Shown one piece after another: positions 5,496-22,472 of a stretch of 64,000 bases of DNA. Position 1 is the first letter of the stretch. Each line of letters begins with the position of its first letter. The notes beneath the pieces were generated by a model, which worked only from the letters and a program-made list of their open reading frames with translations, searched no databases and was not told the DNA's origin. The translations under genes were made by a program, and so were the position numbers. The DNA comes from Nitrospirota bacterium (GTDB taxonomy: Bacteria > Nitrospirota > Nitrospiria > JACQBW01), in NCBI GenBank assembly GCA_016178585.1, contig JACOTA010000018.1:34442-98441 (forward strand), read 5' to 3'.

Positions 5496-5750
5496 CCCAA
5501 GAACAACGATAAATGTGTCATTGCGAGCAAAGCGAAGCAATCTCACAACATCCGCATGGAAAAAAAGATTGCTTCGTCGAAAAAAACCTTCTCGCAATGA
5601 CACCATAGTTTGTCATTGCGAGCCGAAGGCGAAGCAATCTAGCCGTTTTGAACCGAGATCGCCACGCACCCTGCGGGTGCTCGCGATGACAGGCAAAACA
5701 AGGGATTGTAAATCCTATCTCTCTCTTGGAATAGCTTAAAACATGGAAAT
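5496..5750. mobile_element. Composite MITE locus: TIR CCCAAGAACAACGATA + element A (inverse of the 1341 copy) + a second element of the 'GCCACGCACCCTGCGGGTGCTCGCGATGACAGGCAAAACAAGG' variant + degenerate TIR
   Basis: Two abutting hairpin elements bounded by TIR-like ends; spurious 74/81-aa ORFs lie inside. Confidence 0.8.
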
Positions 5751-8030: not shown

Positions 8031-8143
8031 TGTCATTGCGAGGAGGATTTTTCGACGAAGTGCTGTCATTGCGAGCAAAGCGAAGCAATCTATTTTCCAT
8101 ACGGGTGTTATGAGATTGCTTCGCTGGCGCTCGCAATGACAGG
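8031..8143. mobile_element. MITE family A locus (partial left arm + complete element)
   Basis: TGTCATTGCGAGGAGGATTTTTCGACGAAG then TGTCATTGCGAGCAAAGCGAAGCAATCT...AGATTGCTTCGCTGGCGCTCGCAATGACA. Confidence 0.8.
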
Positions 8144-11541: not shown

Positions 11542-13044
11542 TTGAAAATCAGGTTAACTTTAACGTCAAAATTAGTTCTCATCATGCTGTTTTTATCCTT
11601 TTTATCGCTGGGAGCGTCGTTTTATCTTTATGCCCGCACGGAACAGGCGCTGGTAAAAGAAATGGAAGATCATATCAACGAGTTGTCAAACGCCATTTCA
11701 GTGAGCGTGGAAGAACTGACCAGCCCGGAACGGACGACGGAGAAGCGGCTGCAGGATTACGTCAAGCGGCTCGAAAAAAGGGGTGTAAAGGAAATATCGA
11801 TTGTCAGCAACGAAAAAGAGGTCATTGCCAGTTCAAATCCAAAACGGGTGGGGGCAAAAATTGATCCCAAACGAAAGGATTTGTTGATTACCGCGAAACT
11901 GGGAGATCAGCTTCCTTCTCCCACTCAGAAGGCCTATAATCTTCTTGTCCCGATCGTGGTTGAAGGCGAACAGCTGGGGTACGCTCATATCAGCATGGTT
12001 TTTGACGATTATGAAAAGCTGATTGAATCCCACTATTTGGACCGTCTGGTGGCAACCCTGATCGTCTTTTCAGTCGGGATCATGGTTTCGATTTTTCTCT
12101 CGTGGCGCTACACCCGGCCTATTTATCAAATCATGGGAGCCGCGAAAAAAGTCGCCAGGGGCGATTTAAGCCAGACGATCCCTGTCAGAAAAGGGGATGA
12201 CGAAATCAACCAGTTAACGCACAGTTTTAACGAAATGATTGAAAAATTACGGCAGAACAGGGTCCTCGAAGAGAGGCTTCGTGAAACCGAACATTTGACG
12301 GCGCTGGGGCAATTCGCATCGGGGATCGCGCATGAGATTCGGAATCCGCTTAACTTTATTTCCCTGAGTATTGATCATCTCAAAGAAAAAATCGGTCATG
12401 CCTCTCCGGAAGAACAAAAAAAAATGGGCGACCTGATGACCAGCATCAAATCCGAAACCTTTCGTCTCAACCATATGGTCGAAAACTTTTTAAAATACGG
12501 CCGTCCATTAAAACTCGATATCAAACAGGTGAATCTGAACCTTTTGTTGAAAGAGGTGCTCAATTTAGCCAATCAAAAAGCGATTGAACAGGGAATCGAG
12601 ATCAGCTATGTTCCGGAGGACACCCCTTTGATTGACGGTGATGAAGAAAAAATTAAAACCTGCCTGATGAACGTCGTCGCGAATGGCCTTCAGGCAATGC
12701 CAACAGGTGGAACCCTGTCGATACGAATGACCGAACGACCTGAAGAGGTGATCCTCGAAATTACCGATACCGGTCAGGGGATTAGCCCGGAGAATTTAAA
12801 GAAAGTTTTCCAGCCCTATTTTACCACCAAACAACTTGGAATCGGCCTCGGGCTGGCCCTCACCAGACGCATTATTGAAGAACACCACGGCACAATAGAG
12901 ATCAGCTCAAGCCCTGAAAAAGGCACAAAAGTTTTAATGACGTTGCCATTGAATTACGAGATGGTTCCTGAAGCGGGAAGCGAGGAACTGGCTTGGCCAG
13001 GCCGAGCGAGGGGTTCGGGGGCATCGGAGGATTTTACGAAGTGA
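11542..13044 (+). CDS. Sensor histidine kinase (two TM helices flanking a periplasmic domain, HAMP, HisKA, HATPase_c)
   Basis: TM1 LVLIMLFLSFLSLG, TM2 LIVFSVGIMVSIFL; H-box SGIAHEIRNPLNFI; N/G-boxes NVVANGLQAM...DTGQGI...GLGL. Confidence 0.85.
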   Translation: MKIRLTLTSKLVLIMLFLSFLSLGASFYLYARTEQALVKEMEDHINELSNAISVSVEELTSPERTTEKRLQDYVKRLEKRGVKEISIVSNEKEVIASSNPKRVGAKIDPKRKDLLITAKLGDQLPSPTQKAYNLLVPIVVEGEQLGYAHISMVFDDYEKLIESHYLDRLVATLIVFSVGIMVSIFLSWRYTRPIYQIMGAAKKVARGDLSQTIPVRKGDDEINQLTHSFNEMIEKLRQNRVLEERLRETEHLTALGQFASGIAHEIRNPLNFISLSIDHLKEKIGHASPEEQKKMGDLMTSIKSETFRLNHMVENFLKYGRPLKLDIKQVNLNLLLKEVLNLANQKAIEQGIEISYVPEDTPLIDGDEEKIKTCLMNVVANGLQAMPTGGTLSIRMTERPEEVILEITDTGQGISPENLKKVFQPYFTTKQLGIGLGLALTRRIIEEHHGTIEISSSPEKGTKVLMTLPLNYEMVPEAGSEELAWPGRARGSGASEDFTK

Positions 13045-13067
13045 AACCGCACGGGTCCCTGAGTCGA

Positions 13068-14450
13068 ATGGCGAAAGGTGAGACGATTCTGGTCATCGAC
13101 GATGAAAAGCCTCAACGGGATATCCTGAAAATTATCCTGGAACAGGAAGGGTATAAGGTCGAGACGGCATCACACAGCCAGGAGGGTTTAAGAATTTATA
13201 AGAACGGAGAGGCCGATCTTGTTTTGACCGATTTAAAATTGCCCGATACGACGGAGTTAAGCGGCGTCGATGCTCTGTTCCGGATGAATCCGAATGCCTC
13301 CGTCATCATCATGACCGCGCACGGGACGATTGATTCCGCCGTAGAAGCGATGAAAAAAGGGGCGTTTGACTATCTGACTAAACCGCTCGATAAGACGGAG
13401 CTTCTCATTTCCATTCAAAGGGCGTTTGAGCGGATCCGTTTGTTAAGGGAAAACAAAAACCTCCGCCAGCAGTTGGGAGAAAAGTTTACGCTCCAGAATA
13501 TCATCGGAACGCACCCCGCCATGCAGGAGATATTCAAGATCGTTCAAAAGATCGCGGCCAGCAGCAGCACGATATTAATTTATGGGGAAAGCGGCACAGG
13601 CAAGGAATTGATCGCGAGGGCCATCCATTTTAACAGTACCCGGAAAAACGGGCCGTTCCGGGCCATTAATTGCGCGGCGATTCCCGAAAGCTTGATTGAA
13701 AATGAGCTGTTCGGCCACGAAAAGGGCTCTTTTACCGGCGCGGTCGGAAAAGAGATTGGTCTTTTTGAAGCGGCCGGCAAAGGGACCCTTTTCCTCGATG
13801 AAATCGGAGATTTGGGCCATCCGATCCAGGCCAAACTGCTTCGAGCTTTGCAGGAAAAGGAGATTAAGCGGATCGGTGGAAAAGAGGATGTCAAAATCGA
13901 TGTTCGCGTGATTGCCGCGACCAACAAGAATCTCCCCCAGGAAATTAAAAAAGGGGCCTTCCGGGAGGATCTTTTTTACCGGCTCAATATTATTTCGATC
14001 CATCTGCCCCCCTTAAGAGAGCGGGGTTCGGATATTCCAAAACTGGTCGAACATTTCCTCAAAAAGTTCAACAAGCAGACGGGAAAGAATATTAAAAGCC
14101 TCTCGAAGGAAGCGTTTCAAACGCTCCTGAATTATTCATGGCCCGGAAATGTAAGACAGCTGGAGGGTGTCATGGAAAGAACCATTCTCTTATGTGATTC
14201 GGAAGTCATCGGGCTCGAAGACCTTCCCCTTGAAATCAGAAGGGCCGGCCATCCCTTAAGTGAAATTGATTTTGATCTTCCTCCGGAAGGGTTTTCAATG
14301 GAAGCGTTTGAAAAACAGCTCCTGATTAAAGCGATGGAGAAAAGTGACTGGGTTATCGCGAAAGCCGCAAAAATGCTCGGACTTTCGTATAAGACCCTGC
14401 AGTACCGGCTGGACAAGTTCGATCTTAAGAAAAACGGTCGTGAGGAGTGA
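13068..14450 (+). CDS. Sigma-54-dependent response regulator (REC + AAA+ sigma54-interaction + Fis-type HTH; NtrC/ZraR/AtoC class)
   Basis: REC: ILVIDDE...DLVLTDLKLP; Walker A GESGTGKE, GAFTGA motif (SFTGA), ELFGHEKGSFTGA; C-terminal HTH AAKMLGLSYKTLQYRL. Confidence 0.9.
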   Translation: MAKGETILVIDDEKPQRDILKIILEQEGYKVETASHSQEGLRIYKNGEADLVLTDLKLPDTTELSGVDALFRMNPNASVIIMTAHGTIDSAVEAMKKGAFDYLTKPLDKTELLISIQRAFERIRLLRENKNLRQQLGEKFTLQNIIGTHPAMQEIFKIVQKIAASSSTILIYGESGTGKELIARAIHFNSTRKNGPFRAINCAAIPESLIENELFGHEKGSFTGAVGKEIGLFEAAGKGTLFLDEIGDLGHPIQAKLLRALQEKEIKRIGGKEDVKIDVRVIAATNKNLPQEIKKGAFREDLFYRLNIISIHLPPLRERGSDIPKLVEHFLKKFNKQTGKNIKSLSKEAFQTLLNYSWPGNVRQLEGVMERTILLCDSEVIGLEDLPLEIRRAGHPLSEIDFDLPPEGFSMEAFEKQLLIKAMEKSDWVIAKAAKMLGLSYKTLQYRLDKFDLKKNGREE

Positions 14451-14451
14451 C

Positions 14452-14578
14452 TCAAGAGAGATAGACGGCGCATTCATTTATTGATCATGTCATTGCGAGC
14501 ACCGAAGGGTGCGTGGCAATCTTACCGTAAAGTTTTGAGATTGCTTCACTTTGTTCGCAATGACAACTTTCTATCTCT
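14452..14578. mobile_element. MITE (variant with GCACCGAAGGGTGCGTGGCAATCTTACCG core), degenerate left TIR, right TIR CTATCTCTTGGG
   Basis: Near-identical to the copies at 33113 and (inverse) 19145/54107. Confidence 0.8.
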
Positions 14579-14729
14579 TGGGTGTGATTCCTTACAATTT
14601 TTTAAACATACCTTATTTAGGGTATAAACTACCTTATAACAGGTGTTCATAAGGACATGGCTAAGGGTTTTATTTTTATAACTATTTGAAAAATATAATA
14701 AAATTATTTTTACGATCTATTTTTTTTAA

Positions 14730-14745
14730 TGGTATTATTATTGCA
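14730..14745 (+). promoter_or_regulatory. Sigma-54 (-24/-12) promoter TGGTATTATTATTGCA, upstream of the 14801 gene
   Basis: GG at 14731-32 and GC at 14743-44 with exact 10-nt spacing (consensus TGGCAC-N5-TTGCA); AT-rich context; CCTTAT / CCTTAT / ATAAGG half-sites at 14611, 14632, 14649, about 80-120 bp upstream. Confidence 0.6.
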
Positions 14746-14800
14746 CTCATACTACTTCGAGTTTAACTAATAAAATAAACCTGGAAGGGGGTGAAAATAA

Positions 14801-15031
14801 ATGAAAAAAATCTACTCTTTGGTTATTGCCATGATGATGTTGGTTGCTTTCGGTACAGTGACCTTTGCCGCTGACGCCGCTGCTCCAGCTGCTCCGGCCG
14901 CATCAGAAACTCCTAAGGCTGAAGCTTCTTCAAAAACTGTAAAGAAAATGAAGAAGAAAAAAGCCCAAAAAAAAGCTAAAAAAGAAGAAAAGAAAGAAGA
15001 AATGAAAGAAGCTGCGCCAGCGGCGAAATAG
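14801..15031 (+). CDS. Small secreted protein (76 aa): signal peptide + Ala/Pro linker + highly lysine-rich C-terminal tail
   Basis: Strong RBS GGAAGGGGGTGAAAATAAATG; signal peptide MKKIYSLVIAMMMLVAFGTVTFA; tail KKMKKKKAQKKAKKEEKKEEMKE; sigma54 promoter upstream; terminator downstream. Confidence 0.55.
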   Translation: MKKIYSLVIAMMMLVAFGTVTFAADAAAPAAPAASETPKAEASSKTVKKMKKKKAQKKAKKEEKKEEMKEAAPAAK

Positions 15032-15039
15032 TTTTTTTG

Positions 15040-15133
15040 ACGGACTTTGGAATGGTCGTCCTTAGACCGTGACGGACTTTGGAATGGTCGTCCTTAGACC
15101 GTGACGGACTTTGGAATGGTCGTCCTTAGACCG
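15040..15133 (+). repeat. Three tandem direct copies of a 32-bp unit GACGGACTTTGGAATGGTCGTCCTTAGACCGT
   Basis: Read directly; copies abut with no spacers. Confidence 0.9.
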
Positions 15134-15160
15134 GAATGATCAAAATACAGCTTACAGCAA

Positions 15161-15193
15161 AAAAGCACGGTATCTTTACCGTGCTTTTTTTTT
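15161..15193 (+). terminator. Rho-independent terminator (GCACGGTA-TCTTT-ACCGTGC + T9)
   Basis: Perfect 8-bp stem followed by a T-run. Confidence 0.8.
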
Positions 15194-15243
15194 GACGTTG
15201 ATAAATAAATTTCTTTATGACAAAATCTAAAATAAATTATTTT

Positions 15244-15285
15244 ATGGTCTCGTAAAAAGTCGTCATTCCCGCGAAAGCGGGAATC
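15244..15285. repeat. Small repeat family D (ATGGTCTCGTAAAAAGTCGTCATTCCCGC-GAAA-GCGGGAAT hairpin)
   Basis: Second copy at 58321-58390. Confidence 0.7.
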
Positions 15286-15307
15286 TATAGCAAACGTAAT
15301 AAGTAAT

Positions 15308-15394
15308 GTGTCATTGCGAGGAGCGGAGCGACGAAGCAATCCCTTTTTTATGTCAGCTAAGCAACGAGATTGCTTCACTTCGTTCGCAATGACG
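15308..15394. mobile_element. MITE family A element
   Basis: TGTCATTGCGAGGAGCGGAGCGACGAAGCAATCC ... GAGATTGCTTCACTTCGTTCGCAATGACGA. Confidence 0.8.
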
Positions 15395-15426
15395 ACCTTT
15401 AACATGATAAGCTGTCCCTTTTTTCG

Positions 15427-15488
15427 GTCTAACTACGACCATTCCAAAGTCCGTCACGGTCTAAGGACGACCATTCCAAAGTCCGTCA
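15427..15488 (-). repeat. Two inverted copies (one degenerate) of the 32-bp unit found at 15040-15133
   Basis: ACGGTCTAAGGACGACCATTCCAAAGTCCGTC is the reverse complement of the unit. Confidence 0.85.
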
Positions 15489-15546
15489 CAGACTTTTTAA
15501 GAGACCATCATTTAAGAATCGAATATAAATAAGAAAGGTCATTTAA

Positions 15547-15876
15547 ATGAGAAAATCATCGTTCTTTTTAGTTTTATTGTTAGTCGTATTTCTTCCCTTA
15601 ATATCGGGTTGTGAATCGAAAAAGTTAAAAGAAGAAAATACAAAGCTCAAACAGCAGTTTGAAAAAATGACCGAAGAAAACAAGTCGCTTCTCAATGAAG
15701 TGGATCAATTTAAAAAAGAAAACGAACAAATCAAGGAGAAAACCGCTTCTCTTCAGAATGAAAATAGTTCTCTTAAAAAGCAGATTGAATCTCTTAAGAA
15801 AAAACCTGTAAAAAAACCGGTAAAAAAGGCGCCGGCAAAGAAGAAGAAAACAAAAAAAGGAAAACACCCGGCTTAG
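15547..15876 (+). CDS. Coiled-coil lipoprotein (109 aa) with a Lys/Pro-rich C-terminal tail
   Basis: Lipobox LPLISGCES; heptad-like KLKQQFEKMTEENKSLLNEVDQFKKENEQIKEK; tail KKKPVKKPVKKAPAKKKKTKKGK. Confidence 0.55.
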   Translation: MRKSSFFLVLLLVVFLPLISGCESKKLKEENTKLKQQFEKMTEENKSLLNEVDQFKKENEQIKEKTASLQNENSSLKKQIESLKKKPVKKPVKKAPAKKKKTKKGKHPA

Positions 15877-15886
15877 GACCCTGCGC

Positions 15887-16753
15887 GTGATTAACCTTTT
15901 TCTTTCACTCATCCTGTTTTCAGCCGTTTCCTCTGGAGCTTTTTTTTTCTGCATTAAAGCTCTCCCTTTTTATCAAAAATACCGAATGAAAGTTATAACC
16001 GAAACGGTTTCTTCTCTAGATGAACAGTTTTTGTTTCTTACCGAAAGTCAGGCGGCGGTTATTTATACCCTTTCTACCATTGGGTTTCTTTTTTTAGGTT
16101 TTTTTTTGGGAGTGAGTCTTTCATGGAGAGCCGGATTACTGGGCGCCCTCTTTTTTGGGATAGGGGGCTATCACCTGCCTAAAAAAGTCATTCGCGCTAT
16201 TTCCCAAAAAAGATTAAAGGAAATAGAACGGCAAATTCCAGATTTTCTTAAAATGATTTTGGGTGCGCTTCGCGCCGGGTTAAGCGTATCGGAGGCGATG
16301 AAAAAGGCTGTGCAGGAGATTCCGCCGCCTCTTTCGCAGGAGCTTGGTCTGGTATTAAAGAAAATTAAAATGGGAGAGAGTTTTGAAGAGAGTTTTAAAT
16401 ATTTGGACCGCCGGCTGAATTTGGAAGAGATCAGCCTGGTGGTGTCAGCTATTATTCTTTCAAATGAAGCGGGAGGATCATTAACCTCTGTTTTGGAACG
16501 GTTGGAGCGGACTATCGAGGAAAGAAAACGGTTAAAAGGAAAAATTGACGCCTTGACCGCGCAGGGGAAAATGCAGGGGTGGGTGGTCGGATGTCTCCCG
16601 TTTTTGTTAGGGGTTGTCCTGTTTCTCATTGACCCCGGGCTAATGACCCCCTTTTGGACCAGCCTGTCCGGAGGGATCGGACTTTTTGCGATTCTTCTGC
16701 TGGAAATGTCCGGATTTTTCCTGATAAAAAGAATTGTTCAGGGGGAGGCTTAA
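15887..16753 (+). CDS. tadB: Tad/Flp-pilus-type secretion platform protein TadB (T2SS-F domain)
   Basis: LRAGLSVSEAM...GGSLTSVLERLERTIEERKRLKGKIDALTAQGKMQGWVVGCLP; three or more TM segments. Confidence 0.7.
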   Translation: MINLFLSLILFSAVSSGAFFFCIKALPFYQKYRMKVITETVSSLDEQFLFLTESQAAVIYTLSTIGFLFLGFFLGVSLSWRAGLLGALFFGIGGYHLPKKVIRAISQKRLKEIERQIPDFLKMILGALRAGLSVSEAMKKAVQEIPPPLSQELGLVLKKIKMGESFEESFKYLDRRLNLEEISLVVSAIILSNEAGGSLTSVLERLERTIEERKRLKGKIDALTAQGKMQGWVVGCLPFLLGVVLFLIDPGLMTPFWTSLSGGIGLFAILLLEMSGFFLIKRIVQGEA

Positions 16754-16756
16754 ATC

Positions 16757-17590
16757 GTGTTGCCCCTTCTCCTTGATTTTTTAATTTTTATCTCCGTCGC
16801 CTGGCTGACCAATCATTTGTTTCAAGCTCAATTCAAATTTAACCTGGAGCGGATTAAAACATCCCGATTTTATTCATGGGATCCTTTTCCTCAAGTCACC
16901 CCTTATCTCGCCTATCTCCGGCGAAAGATGACGACCGCCCGATGGCGATTTGAGCCGCGGGAGTTTATATGGATTCAAGTCATCAGCGGGACTGGATTGA
17001 TAATGGCGGGAAATTTAAGCCTGGTTCTTTTATCCGGGAGCTGGCCTGATTGGAGCGGGGTTTTGTTTTACGTTTTAATCTTTTTTGGTCTGGGATTCAT
17101 TTTTCCTGTTGTGAAGTTAAACACCGCCGTTCGGTCCCGGCAAAAAAACATGGTCAGGGATTTTTCCTTTTATCTCGATTTGATGGTGCTGGGGGTGGAA
17201 GCAGGGCTCGATTATTCAGCTGTTTTACAGAAAATTCTTCAAAACTCAAAACAAGGCCCTTTAAAGGAAGAGTTGGAAACGATGCTTCAACAGGTTCAGA
17301 TGGGTAAAAGCCGTTCTGAAGCGTGGAGGGAATTTTCCGGCCGAATCGACCTTCCGGAGATTCATTCGGTGATCCTGGCATTTATTCAAACCGATCAAAC
17401 CGGAAGCCCGTTGACCAAAACCCTCCGTCAATTGTCGGATGAAATGAAAACCACCCGGTTTCAACTGGCTGAAAAACGGGCCTACCAGATGCCGGTGAAA
17501 ATGTTAATCCCTCTTCTCGGTTGTATCTTTCCCGCGGTTTTTATCCTCCTGTTTGAACCGTTGGTCTTGCGCTTTCTGCGGCTCTTGTAA
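16757..17590 (+). CDS. tadC: Tad/Flp-pilus-type secretion platform protein TadC (T2SS-F domain)
   Basis: GLDYSAVLQKI...QTGSPLTKTLRQLSDEMKTTRFQLAEKRAYQMPVKMLIPL; follows tadB with a 4-nt gap. Confidence 0.7.
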   Translation: MLPLLLDFLIFISVAWLTNHLFQAQFKFNLERIKTSRFYSWDPFPQVTPYLAYLRRKMTTARWRFEPREFIWIQVISGTGLIMAGNLSLVLLSGSWPDWSGVLFYVLIFFGLGFIFPVVKLNTAVRSRQKNMVRDFSFYLDLMVLGVEAGLDYSAVLQKILQNSKQGPLKEELETMLQQVQMGKSRSEAWREFSGRIDLPEIHSVILAFIQTDQTGSPLTKTLRQLSDEMKTTRFQLAEKRAYQMPVKMLIPLLGCIFPAVFILLFEPLVLRFLRLL

Positions 17591-19041
17591 TGCAATATCT
17601 TCAGGTGGAAGAAATCGGAAGAGGGGGTATGGGCATTGTCTATAAAGCCTATTGCCCCGATCTGAAACGGTGCGTCGTTTTAAAGAAAGTCCACCCTGCC
17701 TTGGCCGTCGATCCGGCCTATCAAAGCCAGATCAAAAAAGAGGCTCAACTCCTCTCCCGGTTGAAACATCCCAATATTGTTTCGTATATCGGCTGCGATT
17801 TAATCGAATCCAATCATCAAAAAGAATTCTGCTTAATCATGGAGTATATCGAGGGGGTAAATTTAAAAGAGTGGTTAAAACTCAGGGGTTCGCTTCCTTT
17901 TGAAAAACTTGTTCCGATGTTTTTAGATTTGTGCGGGGCCCTGGCCTACCTTCACCAGAACCGGATTTTCCATTTTGATTTAAAGCCTGAAAATATCCTC
18001 ATGACGAAAGGGGAAAAGCTTTTTTTGACCGATTTCGGGATTTCGGCAATTGAGAGCGCAAACGGGAACACCGCGCCCCTGGGTGACCCGATCGGAAGCC
18101 TTGAATATAGCGCTCCGGAACAGTTGAAGGGAGAAAAGCCAGGCGGGAGGAGCGATCTTTATTCTCTGGGAATGGTTCTCTACGCGCTTTTAAACGGTAA
18201 GGGTTTTTTTGAAGGGGCTGAAAAACAGGTCATCTGGGGAAAGCTGGTTTATGAGGCCGCTCCTTTTAACTTAACCTTTCCTGAAGAGACGCCTGGTTTT
18301 TTTCAAAACATCATTCGAAAATTAGTCAATAAAGCCGCCGGCGACCGTTATCCGGATGTGAAAACCCTCCTGCTTGAATTTCACCGGCGCTTTTCGGCCC
18401 CCGAAGCTAAAGCTCCCCCTCGCCTTTCCGATTTAAAAGCAGATCTCCCCAACCGGAAAATTTCAGAAAAATGGGTGATTCTGGCAGCGGGTGCGGTCCT
18501 GGTGTTGATTCTTTACTTGAGCGCCGGTTTCGGGCCGGAATTAGTTTCTTCTCCCTCCGCCTTCCTTCCGCCCGCAGGAAATTCAAGCAACAATGAAACT
18601 CGCGTGGACAAGCCGGAGCCTCGGACATTAAACGAATCTGTAAGCCATAACCTCGATCCCGTCATTGAAATACCTCATCTGAAAAAAGAGAAAAAAAGGG
18701 TGGAGCCGCTGAGCAATAACGCCTCGTTACGGGTGCCTGATGATGATGAACTTGAGAGTTTTTTAAATCATTTTAAGTCAAACGCTGAAATCAAGAACCT
18801 CAAAACCCTTGAGGAAACCATTCAGTTTTCGCCGGACAAACTTTCCCATTTCCAAAAGATTTTTGAGACCAATCCAAAACTCGAGGTGGCGTTCCTGCAA
18901 ATCCAACGCGAAGGGCCGACGATTACCGTTCATTATCATCTTCTTTTAAACAAGGTGAGCGGGGAATTTCCGGTTAAATCCGCGGCCATTGAAAACGAGG
19001 AAATCCTTGTATTCCAGAATGGGACCTGGCAACTCAATTGA
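17590..19041 (+). CDS. Ser/Thr protein kinase (Hanks type) with one TM helix and a C-terminal extracytoplasmic domain of unknown function
   Basis: GRGGMGIVYKA...VLKKV; HFDLKPENILM; DFGIS; APE; TM WVILAAGAVLVLILYL; start overlaps the tadC stop (TAATG). Confidence 0.85.
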   Translation: MQYLQVEEIGRGGMGIVYKAYCPDLKRCVVLKKVHPALAVDPAYQSQIKKEAQLLSRLKHPNIVSYIGCDLIESNHQKEFCLIMEYIEGVNLKEWLKLRGSLPFEKLVPMFLDLCGALAYLHQNRIFHFDLKPENILMTKGEKLFLTDFGISAIESANGNTAPLGDPIGSLEYSAPEQLKGEKPGGRSDLYSLGMVLYALLNGKGFFEGAEKQVIWGKLVYEAAPFNLTFPEETPGFFQNIIRKLVNKAAGDRYPDVKTLLLEFHRRFSAPEAKAPPRLSDLKADLPNRKISEKWVILAAGAVLVLILYLSAGFGPELVSSPSAFLPPAGNSSNNETRVDKPEPRTLNESVSHNLDPVIEIPHLKKEKKRVEPLSNNASLRVPDDDELESFLNHFKSNAEIKNLKTLEETIQFSPDKLSHFQKIFETNPKLEVAFLQIQREGPTITVHYHLLLNKVSGEFPVKSAAIENEEILVFQNGTWQLN

Positions 19042-19144: not shown

Positions 19145-19284
19145 CCCAAGAACAGAGTTAGAAAGCTGTCATTGCGAACAAAGTGAAGCAATCTCAAGAC
19201 TTTACGATAAGATTGCCACGCACCCTTCGGTGCTCGCAATGACATGATTAATAAGTGGGTGCGAAGTCTATCGCTGATCTTGGG
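19145..19284. mobile_element. Complete MITE with 17-bp TIRs (CCCAAGAACAGAGTTAG ... CTATCGCTGATCTTGGG)
   Basis: Near-identical to 54107-54251. Confidence 0.85.
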
Positions 19285-21509: not shown

Positions 21510-22472
21510 CTATAACACCTGAAGAAACCGGTCTACTCGACCTTTATACAACCTCATCAACTTTTGTAAAGACTGATCAGGATTTCTTCTTTCTGCCTGA
21601 CGTTGAAGGTGAGATACCCGTGAGGAAGAAATACCAAACATCTTCGCCACCTCCTTTAACCTTAAATTAACCACCTGTCTGAAGAGATACACCGTAGCAT
21701 GATACGCTTCCTGATGGTGACGTTTAAAAATATCCTTTTGACCAACCCCGTATACCTGACATATTTTGTTTAAAACTTCTTCTTTTTGGGGCCTCATGGG
21801 CTGACTCTGCTCTTTTGGTACCTCACTTAAGGAATAATGCTCAATCTGTTTTTCGCTTTCCTTTAAAAATTCTTCTTTCCCCAACCAGATTTGCCCCCGT
21901 AAATTCTCCCATGGAGAACTCATCCTTATTCCTTCTTTCACAAATCTCTGATAAGCCACTCTGGCTGATCCTTCTCCTCTTCCAAATTGACTCAATACCC
22001 ATTTTGTTTCTAACCATTCCGGTGGTTTTTCTAAACCCATTGTTGGAAGAAGACTGCTCCAGGGCCATTCTTCTATTTTCGCAACGATTCCCGCTCGAAT
22101 TGGATTGAGCACAATATACCGGCATAACTCAAGAAGATAGTTCTCTCGATCAACAATGATGCTTTTGTATCGCCCCTGGAATACATGCCCAACCATCCCA
22201 TGACGGCGGTTAAACGCTTGTGTGTAGACCCCATTGAGTCTGCGCATTCCATCCACTAAATTGCCTTCCGGAGTTTCAATCAGTATGTGATAATGATTGG
22301 TCATGAGGCAATAAGCATAGCACTTCCAGCCCTGTTGTTGAATCTCACGGCCCAGGAATTTTAAAAAAAACTCCCGATCTTGATCATCAAGATAGATGTC
22401 CTGCTGACGGTTCCCACGCGCAGTCAGATGATAGAGCGCTCCCGGATATTCTATGCGTAATGGTCTTGCCAT
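21510..22472 (-). CDS. IS200/Y1-type HuH transposase-like protein (COG1943, long form) with C-terminal DnaA-C-like HTH
   Basis: PGALYHLTARGN...CYAYCLMTNHYHILIE...GHVFQGRYKS; C-terminal QVYGVGQKDIFKRHHQEAYHATVYLFRQVVNLRLKEVAKMFGISSSRVSH. Confidence 0.8.
   Translation of the reverse strand: MARPLRIEYPGALYHLTARGNRQQDIYLDDQDREFFLKFLGREIQQQGWKCYAYCLMTNHYHILIETPEGNLVDGMRRLNGVYTQAFNRRHGMVGHVFQGRYKSIIVDRENYLLELCRYIVLNPIRAGIVAKIEEWPWSSLLPTMGLEKPPEWLETKWVLSQFGRGEGSARVAYQRFVKEGIRMSSPWENLRGQIWLGKEEFLKESEKQIEHYSLSEVPKEQSQPMRPQKEEVLNKICQVYGVGQKDIFKRHHQEAYHATVYLFRQVVNLRLKEVAKMFGISSSRVSHLQRQAERRNPDQSLQKLMRLYKGRVDRFLQVL

Follow-up and report, generated by a model that had tools for sequence, protein, structure and literature searches.

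The question raised by this locus is whether a two-component system of the NtrC class, encoded within a stretch of 64,000 nucleotides from a Nitrospirota genome (contig JACOTA010000018.1; this whole stretch is referred to below as the window), controls the small, secreted, lysine-tailed protein whose gene lies directly downstream of it, and how such a protein might act in the cell envelope. An earlier note on this stretch had reported a sensor kinase, an NtrC-class regulator, a miniature inverted-repeat transposable element (MITE), a -24/-12 promoter element, a ribosome-binding site (RBS), an open reading frame (ORF) for a secreted protein of 76 amino acids (aa) and an intrinsic terminator, and it had likened their arrangement to the ZraSR/zraP system of E. 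coli. All of these features are present where they had been placed (Table 1), and the regulatory likeness to ZraSR/zraP is upheld by a promoter that is shared by 11 of 12 loci encoding homologues of the small protein, by a palindrome at enhancer distance and by synteny within the Nitrospiria. Our comparisons indicate that the locus follows a ZraSR/ZraP-like circuit logic with an effector from a previously undescribed and widespread protein family. As a whole, it is on balance probably best explained as a dedicated signal-to-envelope module.

Table 1. Features of the small-gene locus in the window and predicted -24/-12 elements of homologous loci
Locus	Feature	Positions	Strand	Basis or remark
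Window	Sensor histidine kinase	11542..13044	+	Pfam HAMP, HisKA, HATPase_c
Window	NtrC-class response regulator, sigma-54 enhancer-binding protein	13068..14450	+	Receiver (REC), AAA+, Fis-type helix-turn-helix (HTH)
Window	MITE, 76 bp, GTCATTGCGA...TCGCAATGAC terminal inverted repeats	14489..14564	.	Between regulator stop and activator sites
Window	Putative upstream activator site 1, palindrome ATACCTTATTTAGGGTAT	14608..14625	.	Motif search; 122 bp upstream of TGG
Window	Putative upstream activator site 2 CTACCTTATAACAGGTGT	14629..14646	.	Position weight matrix (PWM) score 12.8, minus strand; 21 bp downstream of site 1
Window	Integration host factor (IHF)-like site TTTCAAATAGTTA	14679..14691	-	One mismatch to WATCAANNNNTTR; A+T-rich spacer
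Window	Predicted sigma-54 -24/-12 promoter TGGTATTATTATTGCA	14730..14745	+	TGG-N8-TTGCA spacing, cross-locus conservation
Window	Shine-Dalgarno GGAAGGGGGTGA	14783..14794	+	Near-consensus, 6 nt before ATG, read from sequence
Window	ORF of 76-aa pre-protein	14801..15031	+	ORF listing, family profile
Window	Sec signal peptide	14801..14869	+	Predicted cleavage between TFA and AD
Window	Three perfect 32-bp tandem repeats, unit TGACGGACTTTGGAATGGTCGTCCTTAGACCG	15038..15133	+	3' untranslated region (UTR); TRF score 192
Window	Intrinsic terminator GCACGGTA-TCTT-TACCGTGC + T9	15165..15193	+	Fold; stem 15165-15184, T9 15185-15193
L002	-24/-12 element			TGGTACCGATATTGCA
L006	-24/-12 element			TGGCACCATACTTGCA
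L046	-24/-12 element			TGGCATCTTTGTTGCA
L001	-24/-12 element			TGGCACGCTGCCTGCT
L003	-24/-12 element			TGGCACGGCACCTGCA
L026	-24/-12 element			TGGCACAACACATGCT
L027	-24/-12 element			TGGCATGGCCTATGCT
L028	-24/-12 element			TGGCACGTTTGATGCT
L048	-24/-12 element			TGGCATCATATATGCT
L049	-24/-12 element			TGGCACGGTCCCTGCT

The assignment of the promoter depends upon its conservation, because a single -24/-12 match in the window is at the level of chance: five instances of TGG-N8-TTGCW were found where 3.6 are expected, and the off-spacing control TGG-N9-TTGCW gave six. The consensus of such promoters is TGGCAC-N5-TTGCW and transcription starts about 12 nt downstream of the GC. The element in the window, TGGTAT-TATTA-TTGCA, matches this consensus at 13 of 16 positions, with TGG and TTGCA exact, TAT in place of CAC, and the GG and GC exactly 10 bp apart, as is characteristic of the sigma-54 class. 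It is not the perfect element that had been described, since it reads TGGTAT and not TGGCAC, and its distance to the ATG is 56 nt and that to the RBS about 38 nt, not the figure of about 55 nt that had been given for the latter. A transcription start is predicted near 14756.

Twelve loci encoding homologues of the small protein were compared, five from Nitrospiria (viz. the window, L002, L005, L006, and L046) and seven from distant, mostly GC-rich genomes (viz. L001, L003, L026, L027, L028, L048, and L049). The latter are apparently Desulfuromonadales-like, judging from the NCBI names of other members of the family (Desulfuromonadales, Desulfuromonadaceae, and "Deltaproteobacteria"). The pattern TGG-N9-TGCW is found 32–59 nt upstream of the ATG in 11 of the 12 loci, where its chance of occurring (within 100 nt) is 0.1–0.9% per locus; the product of these per-locus values is about 4e-28, the five Nitrospiria loci not being independent of one another. 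The twelfth locus, L005, has kept a GGG variant, GGGTTCTTTTTTTGCA, which is separated from the RBS by a repeat insertion of about 190 bp. All seven distant loci share the form TGGCAY-N5-NTGCW, and among L002, L006, and L046 the GG and GC are invariant and the spacer is variable; a fixed GG and GC with a drifting spacer constitute the signature of a functional -24/-12 element. This conservation at the same place in homologous loci makes it very likely that transcription of the small gene is sigma-54 dependent.

The proteins encoded by the two upstream genes have the domains expected for the control of such a promoter. The kinase has two predicted transmembrane segments flanking a periplasmic domain of about 135 aa, with a weak Cache-like Pfam match, N-terminal to its HAMP, HisKA and HATPase_c domains. 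The regulator combines a receiver, an AAA+ sigma-54 interaction domain and a Fis-type HTH, as is typical of the NtrC class (PF00072 Response_reg; PF00158 Sigma54_activat, 236 bits, E = 1.8e-70; PF25601 AAA_lid_14; PF02954 HTH_8), and its sigma-54-contacting GAFTGA loop reads GSFTGA (at 13725). No other enhancer-binding protein is encoded in the 64 kb of the window, and the regulator matches MBI1820717.1, a [quoted passage not shown], with 100% identity. Neither protein attains the cut-off of any NCBIfam equivalog model, those for AtoS, ZraS, AtoC, NtrC, PrsR, and ZraR included: the regulator scores 471 bits against a cut-off of 714 for AtoC, 450 against 558.6 for NtrC, 424 against 502.6 for PrsR and 377 against 760 for ZraR, and the kinase scores 235 against 646 for AtoS and 200 against 479 for ZraS. 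The system shares its domain architecture and its best scores, all of them below the cut-offs, with AtoS/AtoC, NtrB/NtrC, and PrsK/PrsR, but its putative target, in contrast to theirs, is neither an ato or gln gene nor a PEP-CTERM gene; its matches to ZraS/ZraR are likewise strong but sub-threshold. A metagenome scan with the kinase alignment returned only kinases of 22–33% identity and no additional orthologous loci.

Putative binding sites for an activator of this class were identified by an unbiased 18-mer motif search over positions -200 to -21 of nine loci (L046, L048, and L049 being held out). One 18-bp palindrome, with the consensus ATRCCnnAWWTRRGGTAT, was returned for all nine loci at 111–135 bp upstream of the TGG, and its leave-one-out score of 155.5 compares with 76 +/- 5.5 (maximum 90.5) for shuffled sequences. 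Site 1 of the window is the top match of the resulting nine-site PWM in the whole 64 kb. The offsets of the palindrome from the TGG are -111, -111, -111, -112, and -114 in the distant loci, -122 in the window, and -133, -134, and -135 in the other Nitrospiria, and these steps of about 11 bp indicate that the same face of the helix is preserved. When the PWM was applied to the held-out loci, its best match in the whole 12-kb locus of L046 was at -130 and the best in the 16-kb locus of L048 was at -112; in L049 a weak match, the second best in 8.4 kb, lies exactly at -111. The weaker site 2 follows site 1 at a distance that corresponds to two helical turns; its CCT-N6-AGG core is aligned across the Nitrospiria loci, and equivalents of a second site are found at -109 in L046 and at -90 in L049. 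Tandem dyads at -122 and -101 from the TGG, together with the GSFTGA loop, constitute the enhancer-binding arrangement of the sigma-54 class.

The earlier note had drawn attention to three CCTTAT/ATAAGG half-sites in this region and had proposed a CCTTAT-N11-ATAAGG dyad as the conserved element. The hexamers (at 14611, 14632, and 14649) are real and locally clustered, with three copies in 44 bp, and the window as a whole is not enriched for them (32 vs. 31 expected). Two of them form the left halves of the conserved sites, but the third, ATAAGG at 14649, is unconserved. A search of the orthologous loci accordingly recovers the -24/-12 element but not that dyad, and the sites that are conserved are the palindrome at 14608-14625 and its neighbour at 14629-14646. 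All five Nitrospiria loci, and none of the distant ones, additionally have an IHF-consensus-like site (0–1 mismatch) 50–53 bp upstream of the TGG, always on the same strand; the spacer being A+T-rich, this site is weak evidence when considered alone. Elsewhere in the window, the second-best PWM match (GTACCTCACTTAAGGAAT, 21818-21835, score 15.7) falls in the span of a 320-aa ORF on the minus strand (21510-22472) with no correctly spaced -24/-12 element nearby, and it is probably fortuitous.

The gene order provides a further link between the two-component system and the small gene. The order purE-sua5-kinase-regulator-small gene is found in the window, in L005 and in L046/L047, and in L006 it is found as kinase-regulator-small gene, the two-component system lying directly upstream of the small gene in all four of these Nitrospiria genomes. 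The kinase is 74–79% identical to its orthologues in metagenome-assembled genomes (MAGs) of Nitrospiria, and the regulator is 78–90% identical in the syntenic Nitrospiria. Site 1 begins about 20–30 bp past the regulator stop in L005 and L046, and it overlaps the last codons of the regulator in L006. In the distant loci, the small gene is monocistronic among unrelated housekeeping genes and has kept both promoter and palindrome. The earlier note would have judged the proposal by whether homologues of the small protein are ever found adjacent to NtrC-like regulators; they are so in Nitrospiria and in none of the seven loci outside of it, where the refuting condition of that note literally applies. 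Adjacency is, however, the wrong test, because promoter and palindrome persist in the unlinked distant loci. On the basis of synteny and site conservation, we consider it likely that the adjacent regulator activates the small gene.

Several observations weigh against this assignment. No NtrC-type system is encoded within 5–8 kb of the small gene in any of the seven distant loci, and since the gene is unlinked from the two-component system outside Nitrospiria, some other enhancer-binding protein may activate it. In L044/L045, which represent a more distant lineage of Nitrospirae with the same purE-sua5-kinase-regulator synteny (kinase 55% and regulator 64% identical to those of the window), the downstream gene (7577-8002 in L044; also present in L045) encodes a different secreted protein of 141 aa, which is Lys-rich, has weak CusF/TOBE/OB-like matches (E about 0.01–0.2) and has its own sigma-54 element, TGGCATAGGGATTGCT, 68 nt before the ATG. 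There is no PWM match to the palindrome at L044, and this different downstream gene without the palindrome indicates that the pairing of regulator and target is not fixed. The HTH region of the regulator is only 65% identical between the window and a MAG of the Geobacteraceae, despite the conserved palindrome. Finally, the window contains neither an RpoN box nor rpoN itself, and the presence of rpoN in the source genome is assumed from knowledge of the phylum. Most of these points could be accounted for if the small gene were sigma-54 dependent but its palindrome were bound by another enhancer-binding protein, the adjacency in Nitrospiria being incidental or serving a different target. We regard this explanation as unlikely in view of the four syntenic Nitrospiria genomes with their similar regulators, the position of site 1 near or overlapping the end of the regulator gene, the lack of any other enhancer-binding protein in 64 kb, and the presence of an orthologous kinase/regulator pair in another phylum. 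This pair is encoded in the Geobacteraceae MAG, whose lineage is related to carriers of the stand-alone gene; its kinase is 44% identical to that of the window from end to end, the periplasmic sensor domain included, its regulator is 60% identical, and it is also unlinked to the small gene. These observations fit a single conserved system that would act in cis in Nitrospiria and in trans elsewhere.

The pattern of substitutions indicates that the small gene is a real coding sequence, because synonymous changes exceed non-synonymous changes in comparisons with L005 and L046 (9:3 and 7:4, respectively, in the first 26 codons; 7:8 with L006) and because its product belongs to a family of at least 219 clusters that are matched over their full length. 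Its RBS is conserved as GGGGGTGAAA in L002, L005, and L046 and as GGAGGTGAAA in L006. Its terminator, which was missed by a simple terminator scan and which sits in a 3' region with a fold z of -5.2, is conserved in L002, L005, L006, and L046, and a hairpin with a T-run also ends the distant homologues. An Rfam search of 14300-15700 gave no family at gathering score (best E 0.14–0.59, terminator-driven). The exact 76-aa product is absent from the gene-call collection, in which the neighbouring regulator is recorded (MBI1820717.1), and the small gene is apparently unannotated in the public MAG; several homologues from NCBI assemblies likewise have no accession.

The extent of the family was established by a profile (HMMER) search of 1.84 billion representative proteins, which identified at least 219 clusters (at 50% identity) with E <= 1e-3, 20 of them with E <= 1e-10, nearly all of 65–100 aa. 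A single-sequence word-index search with the 76-aa protein gave only three matches, Lys-rich words swamping the candidates, and a metagenome scan with the small-protein alignment, whose patterns were too degenerate, gave none. The signal peptide is unusually well conserved in the family (MKKVLSTIVAALVAVSFAG.VFA/AE, the slash marking cleavage) and is followed by an Ala/Pro (or Thr) linker, frequently with PAGHPP, then by a Lys block of the form KKxKKxKKAKKxxKKEE, which is His-rich in some members, and by a C-terminus ...APAAK in which the final Lys is invariant. The mature part in the window (53 aa) consists of an Ala/Pro linker, a Lys/Glu block and the terminus ...APAAK, with a net charge of +8 and an isoelectric point (pI) of 9.9. 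Across the family, the mature part has a median length of 54 aa, its net charge ranges from +5 to +11 with a median of +8, and its median pI is 9.9; bulky hydrophobic residues (F, W, Y, L, I) make up only 0.5% of mature residues. An AlphaFold2 model (35-sequence alignment) has a pTM of 0.25 and no fold, with a signal-peptide helix at residues 2–25, disorder at 26–39 (pLDDT < 50) and a low-confidence charged helix at 40–70; the mature parts are predicted to be disordered or single-helix. What selection appears to maintain is a net charge of about +8, the absence of structure and the invariant C-terminal Lys, rather than the sequence as such.

A search of the 76-aa protein against Pfam, which had been proposed earlier, gave no family at E <= 0.01. 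When 32 members were scanned against Pfam, each family that appeared was hit by one member at most, and CpxP, Spy and ZraP were not among these families, in agreement with the earlier statement that the effector is unrelated to those proteins; 10 of the 32 members (the protein of the window not among them) give weak NCBIfam Spy matches (best E = 1.7e-5). Publicly, members are named "hypothetical protein" or carry inconsistent automatic labels (viz. "Ni/Co efflux regulator RcnB", "nitrate reductase cytochrome c-type subunit", and "TIM-barrel hydrolase" from JGI). Three of the 32 members match NF040942, "selenite/tellurite reduction operon protein ExtJ" (E = 3e-6), and PF28279, a family absent from the local Pfam copy, is attached to some members as a precomputed tag. 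Four other identities for the small protein were considered and rejected. It has no Flp motif and has its own terminator, and the tad genes (tadB and tadC downstream) are absent downstream in L006, which argues against a Flp/Tad pilin; the PEP-CTERM motif is absent; and there is no lipobox Cys as would be required in a lipoprotein. For a bacteriocin, the "ocin" model is weak in 5 of the 32 members (E >= 0.002), no immunity or export gene is present, and the Sec destination is the periplasm, where Sec export in diderm bacteria ends.

The closest known analogue of the small protein would be Asr, which the earlier note had not considered and to which its likeness is one of architecture only. The family shares with Asr (NF033636) a closely similar Sec signal, a Thr/Ala/Pro linker of low complexity, a repetitive, basic Lys/Ala (+/-His) block, a Pro/Ala C-terminus, a pI of about 10 (10.5 in Asr) and an Ala+Pro content of 38% in both, export being deduced here from the signal peptide. 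NF033636 is weakly matched by 28 of the 32 members (best E = 3.2e-8), the protein of the window scoring 29.7 bits against a cut-off of 50. A profile comparison (hhalign) of the family with E. coli Asr aligned only residues 1–31, i.e., the signal peptide, and a BLASTP comparison with Asr was not significant (E = 4.7). Asr is also longer than members of this family (81 vs. about 54 aa in the mature part) and more basic (+14 vs. +8), and it has no Glu-rich segment. Hence, the small protein is best regarded as an analogue of Asr of unproven homology, and we have not placed it in the Asr family. Asr, an intrinsically disordered chaperone of the periplasm, ranks among the proteins that acid induces most strongly (PMC10746267). 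The RstBA two-component system targets it directly and receives positive feedback from it in return; transcription of asr depends on the sigma-70 holoenzyme together with two regulators of the OmpR family, RstA and PhoB, not on sigma-54 (PMC13425233). By analogy, a role as an Asr-like periplasmic polycation may be put forward tentatively for the small protein, and an envelope-stress or polyanion-binding function is plausible.

The regulatory side of the comparison leads to ZraS/ZraR-ZraP of E. coli and Salmonella, where an NtrC-class system acts through a sigma-54 promoter to switch on an adjacent gene for a small periplasmic protein. The zraP gene is divergent from zraSR, whereas the small gene here is co-directional and downstream of the regulator. 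Unlike ZraP, the effector here has no Pfam family or CpxP/Spy/ZraP domain, it is predicted to be disordered and not a folded oligomer, and in the window it lacks metal ligands. ZraP is described, in the studies as cited in PMC6737893, as a chaperone that also represses the two-component system controlling it (Appia-Ayme 2012; Petit-Hartlein 2015).

This comparison bears upon another explanation, in which the mature protein would chiefly buffer metals or protons, or serve as a metallochaperone, in the way of SilE, PcoE and ZraP, and the two-component system would be a sensor of metal or pH. Many members of the family carry the linker motif (M/L)PAGHPP(V/I) or His-rich blocks such as KHHKKHKRHHKKHKK, some are labelled "Ni/Co efflux regulator RcnB", the second-best score of the kinase is to ZraS, and Asr, which is His-rich as read from the E. 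coli sequence, is acid-induced (PMC10746267). However, the mature part contains no His in the window, L002, L005, and L006 and a single His in L046, PAGHPP is lacking in all five, the features that are constant across the family are the net charge and the Lys block rather than metal ligands, and the JGI automatic names are mutually inconsistent; a metal- or proton-buffering role is accordingly rather improbable. The weakest alternative, in which the -24/-12 match would be fortuitous and the A+T-rich spacer would supply a sigma-70 promoter for the small gene, is very improbable. In its favour, a lone TGG-N8-TTGCW match is at chance level, sigma-70-like matches occur at 14675-14704 (TTTATA-18-TAAAAT) and 14709-14738 (TTTACG-18-TATTAT, overlapping the -24/-12), and a block that L002 has conserved contains a perfect TATAAT at about 14694. 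Against it, the sigma-70-like matches score 9/12 and do not outnumber those of shuffles by a wide margin (5 vs. 2.6), the second is not retained in L002 or L006, the hexamers are not conserved in L006 or the distant loci, and TGG-N9-TGCW is kept in 11 of 12 loci, including GC-rich genomes that have no A+T-rich spacer.

Sequence and comparison directly show the domain content, the promoter, the arrangement of activator and IHF-like sites, the gene order, the export signal and the amino-acid composition. Binding of these sites by the adjacent regulator, the kind of cue sensed and what the protein does in the cell are inferred. In the proposed signal-to-envelope module, the membrane kinase would sense a periplasmic or envelope cue through its periplasmic domain of about 135 aa and would phosphorylate the NtrC-class regulator. 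The regulator would then bind the two dyad sites 21 bp apart (14608-14646), some 100–120 bp upstream of the -24, and a bend in the DNA, provided by the A+T-rich spacer and probably also by the IHF-like site, would bring it to the sigma-54 holoenzyme at TGGTAT-N5-TTGCA, where the promoter would be opened by ATP hydrolysis. The resulting short monocistronic mRNA, with its near-consensus RBS and its own terminator, would be translated at a high rate. Sec would export the pre-protein, with cleavage after TFA, and the mature product of about 53 residues, which has a net charge of about +8 and essentially no hydrophobic core, would build up in the periplasm. There it may behave like E. coli Asr, as a polycation without fixed structure that shields envelope components, chaperones them or binds polyanions; feedback on the kinase that controls it may also occur.

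A bolder form of this proposal, which we consider improbable as a whole, makes the small protein the only conserved target of a sigma-54 two-component system that is dedicated to it and spans at least two phyla; the protein would then act as an inducible periplasmic polycation which resets the electrostatics of the envelope. The partners of such a polycation might be lipopolysaccharide, phospholipid, extracellular DNA or polyphosphate; alternatively, the protein might be covalently attached to peptidoglycan via its terminal Lys, as is Braun's lipoprotein. Return signalling to the cognate kinase is a further possibility.

The results are of significance in a number of regards. An unnamed family of at least 219 clusters at 50% identity, with no Pfam family or curated name, gains a regulatory signature in the form of an 18-bp palindrome together with a sigma-54 promoter, and a two-component system can now be proposed as its candidate cognate partner. 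The circuit of an NtrC-type system with a small periplasmic protein, known from ZraPSR, would thereby have a second kind of effector, and the analogy suggests that Asr-like disordered polycations may be a recurrent device for envelope protection outside the Enterobacteria. The palindrome and its helical phasing, which are shared by Nitrospirota and Desulfuromonadales-like genomes, provide a ready motif for the prediction of regulons, and the palindrome-bearing promoter offers a simple reporter for the cue of the kinase in slow-growing or uncultured relatives of nitrifiers. The module is also compact enough for heterologous reconstitution. The family appears to be common in Desulfuromonadales-like bacteria, which include the genetically tractable Geobacter species, and direct tests are feasible if a cultured relative of Geobacter carries the family.

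The remaining features of the locus are repeats and neighbouring genes. The MITE widens the distance between the regulator stop and site 1 in the window, it is not present at the corresponding place in L005, L006, and L046, and it is no part of the mechanism. Its terminal repeat, GTCATTGCGA, is matched 39 times in the window where 3.7 matches are expected, and about 15 further copies of the MITE occur (e.g., 1342-1426, 5517-5601, 8065-8140, 15310-15393, and 19168-19243). Another TGG-N8-TTGCW match (at 8084) falls inside a MITE copy. The 32-bp tandem repeats are located between the stop codon of the small gene and the terminator. Two inverted copies of the unit lie about 300 bp downstream (15425-15489), with no further copies in the window; the closest relative, L046, has two copies at the same position in the 3' UTR, and the other orthologues have a single unrelated hairpin there. 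From this distribution the repeats are judged to be a lineage-specific insertion, and they could be a REP-like or an mRNA-stabilising element.

A second repeat family is situated at the junction of the kinase and regulator genes (12979-13062), where it encodes the C-terminal tail of the kinase (...SEDFTK*) and parts the two genes, which in L046 and L044 share 4 nt of overlap. The insertion of about 190 bp in the 5' UTR of L005 (L005 9141-9345) consists of this repeat family as well, and a piece of the repeat (L005 7375-7421) lies inside the kinase ORF of L005 and is read through. Downstream of the small gene, the block 15547-19041 encodes a 109-aa lipoprotein (lipobox LISGC), two T2SSF (TadB/TadC-like) proteins and a Ser/Thr protein kinase; it is conserved in L005 and L046 and not in L006, and it is probably a separate unit because the terminator intervenes after the small gene. 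The 109-aa lipoprotein has a coiled coil and its own Lys-rich tail, KKPVKKPVKKAPAKKKKTKKGK, and is a second Lys-tailed envelope protein adjoining the locus.

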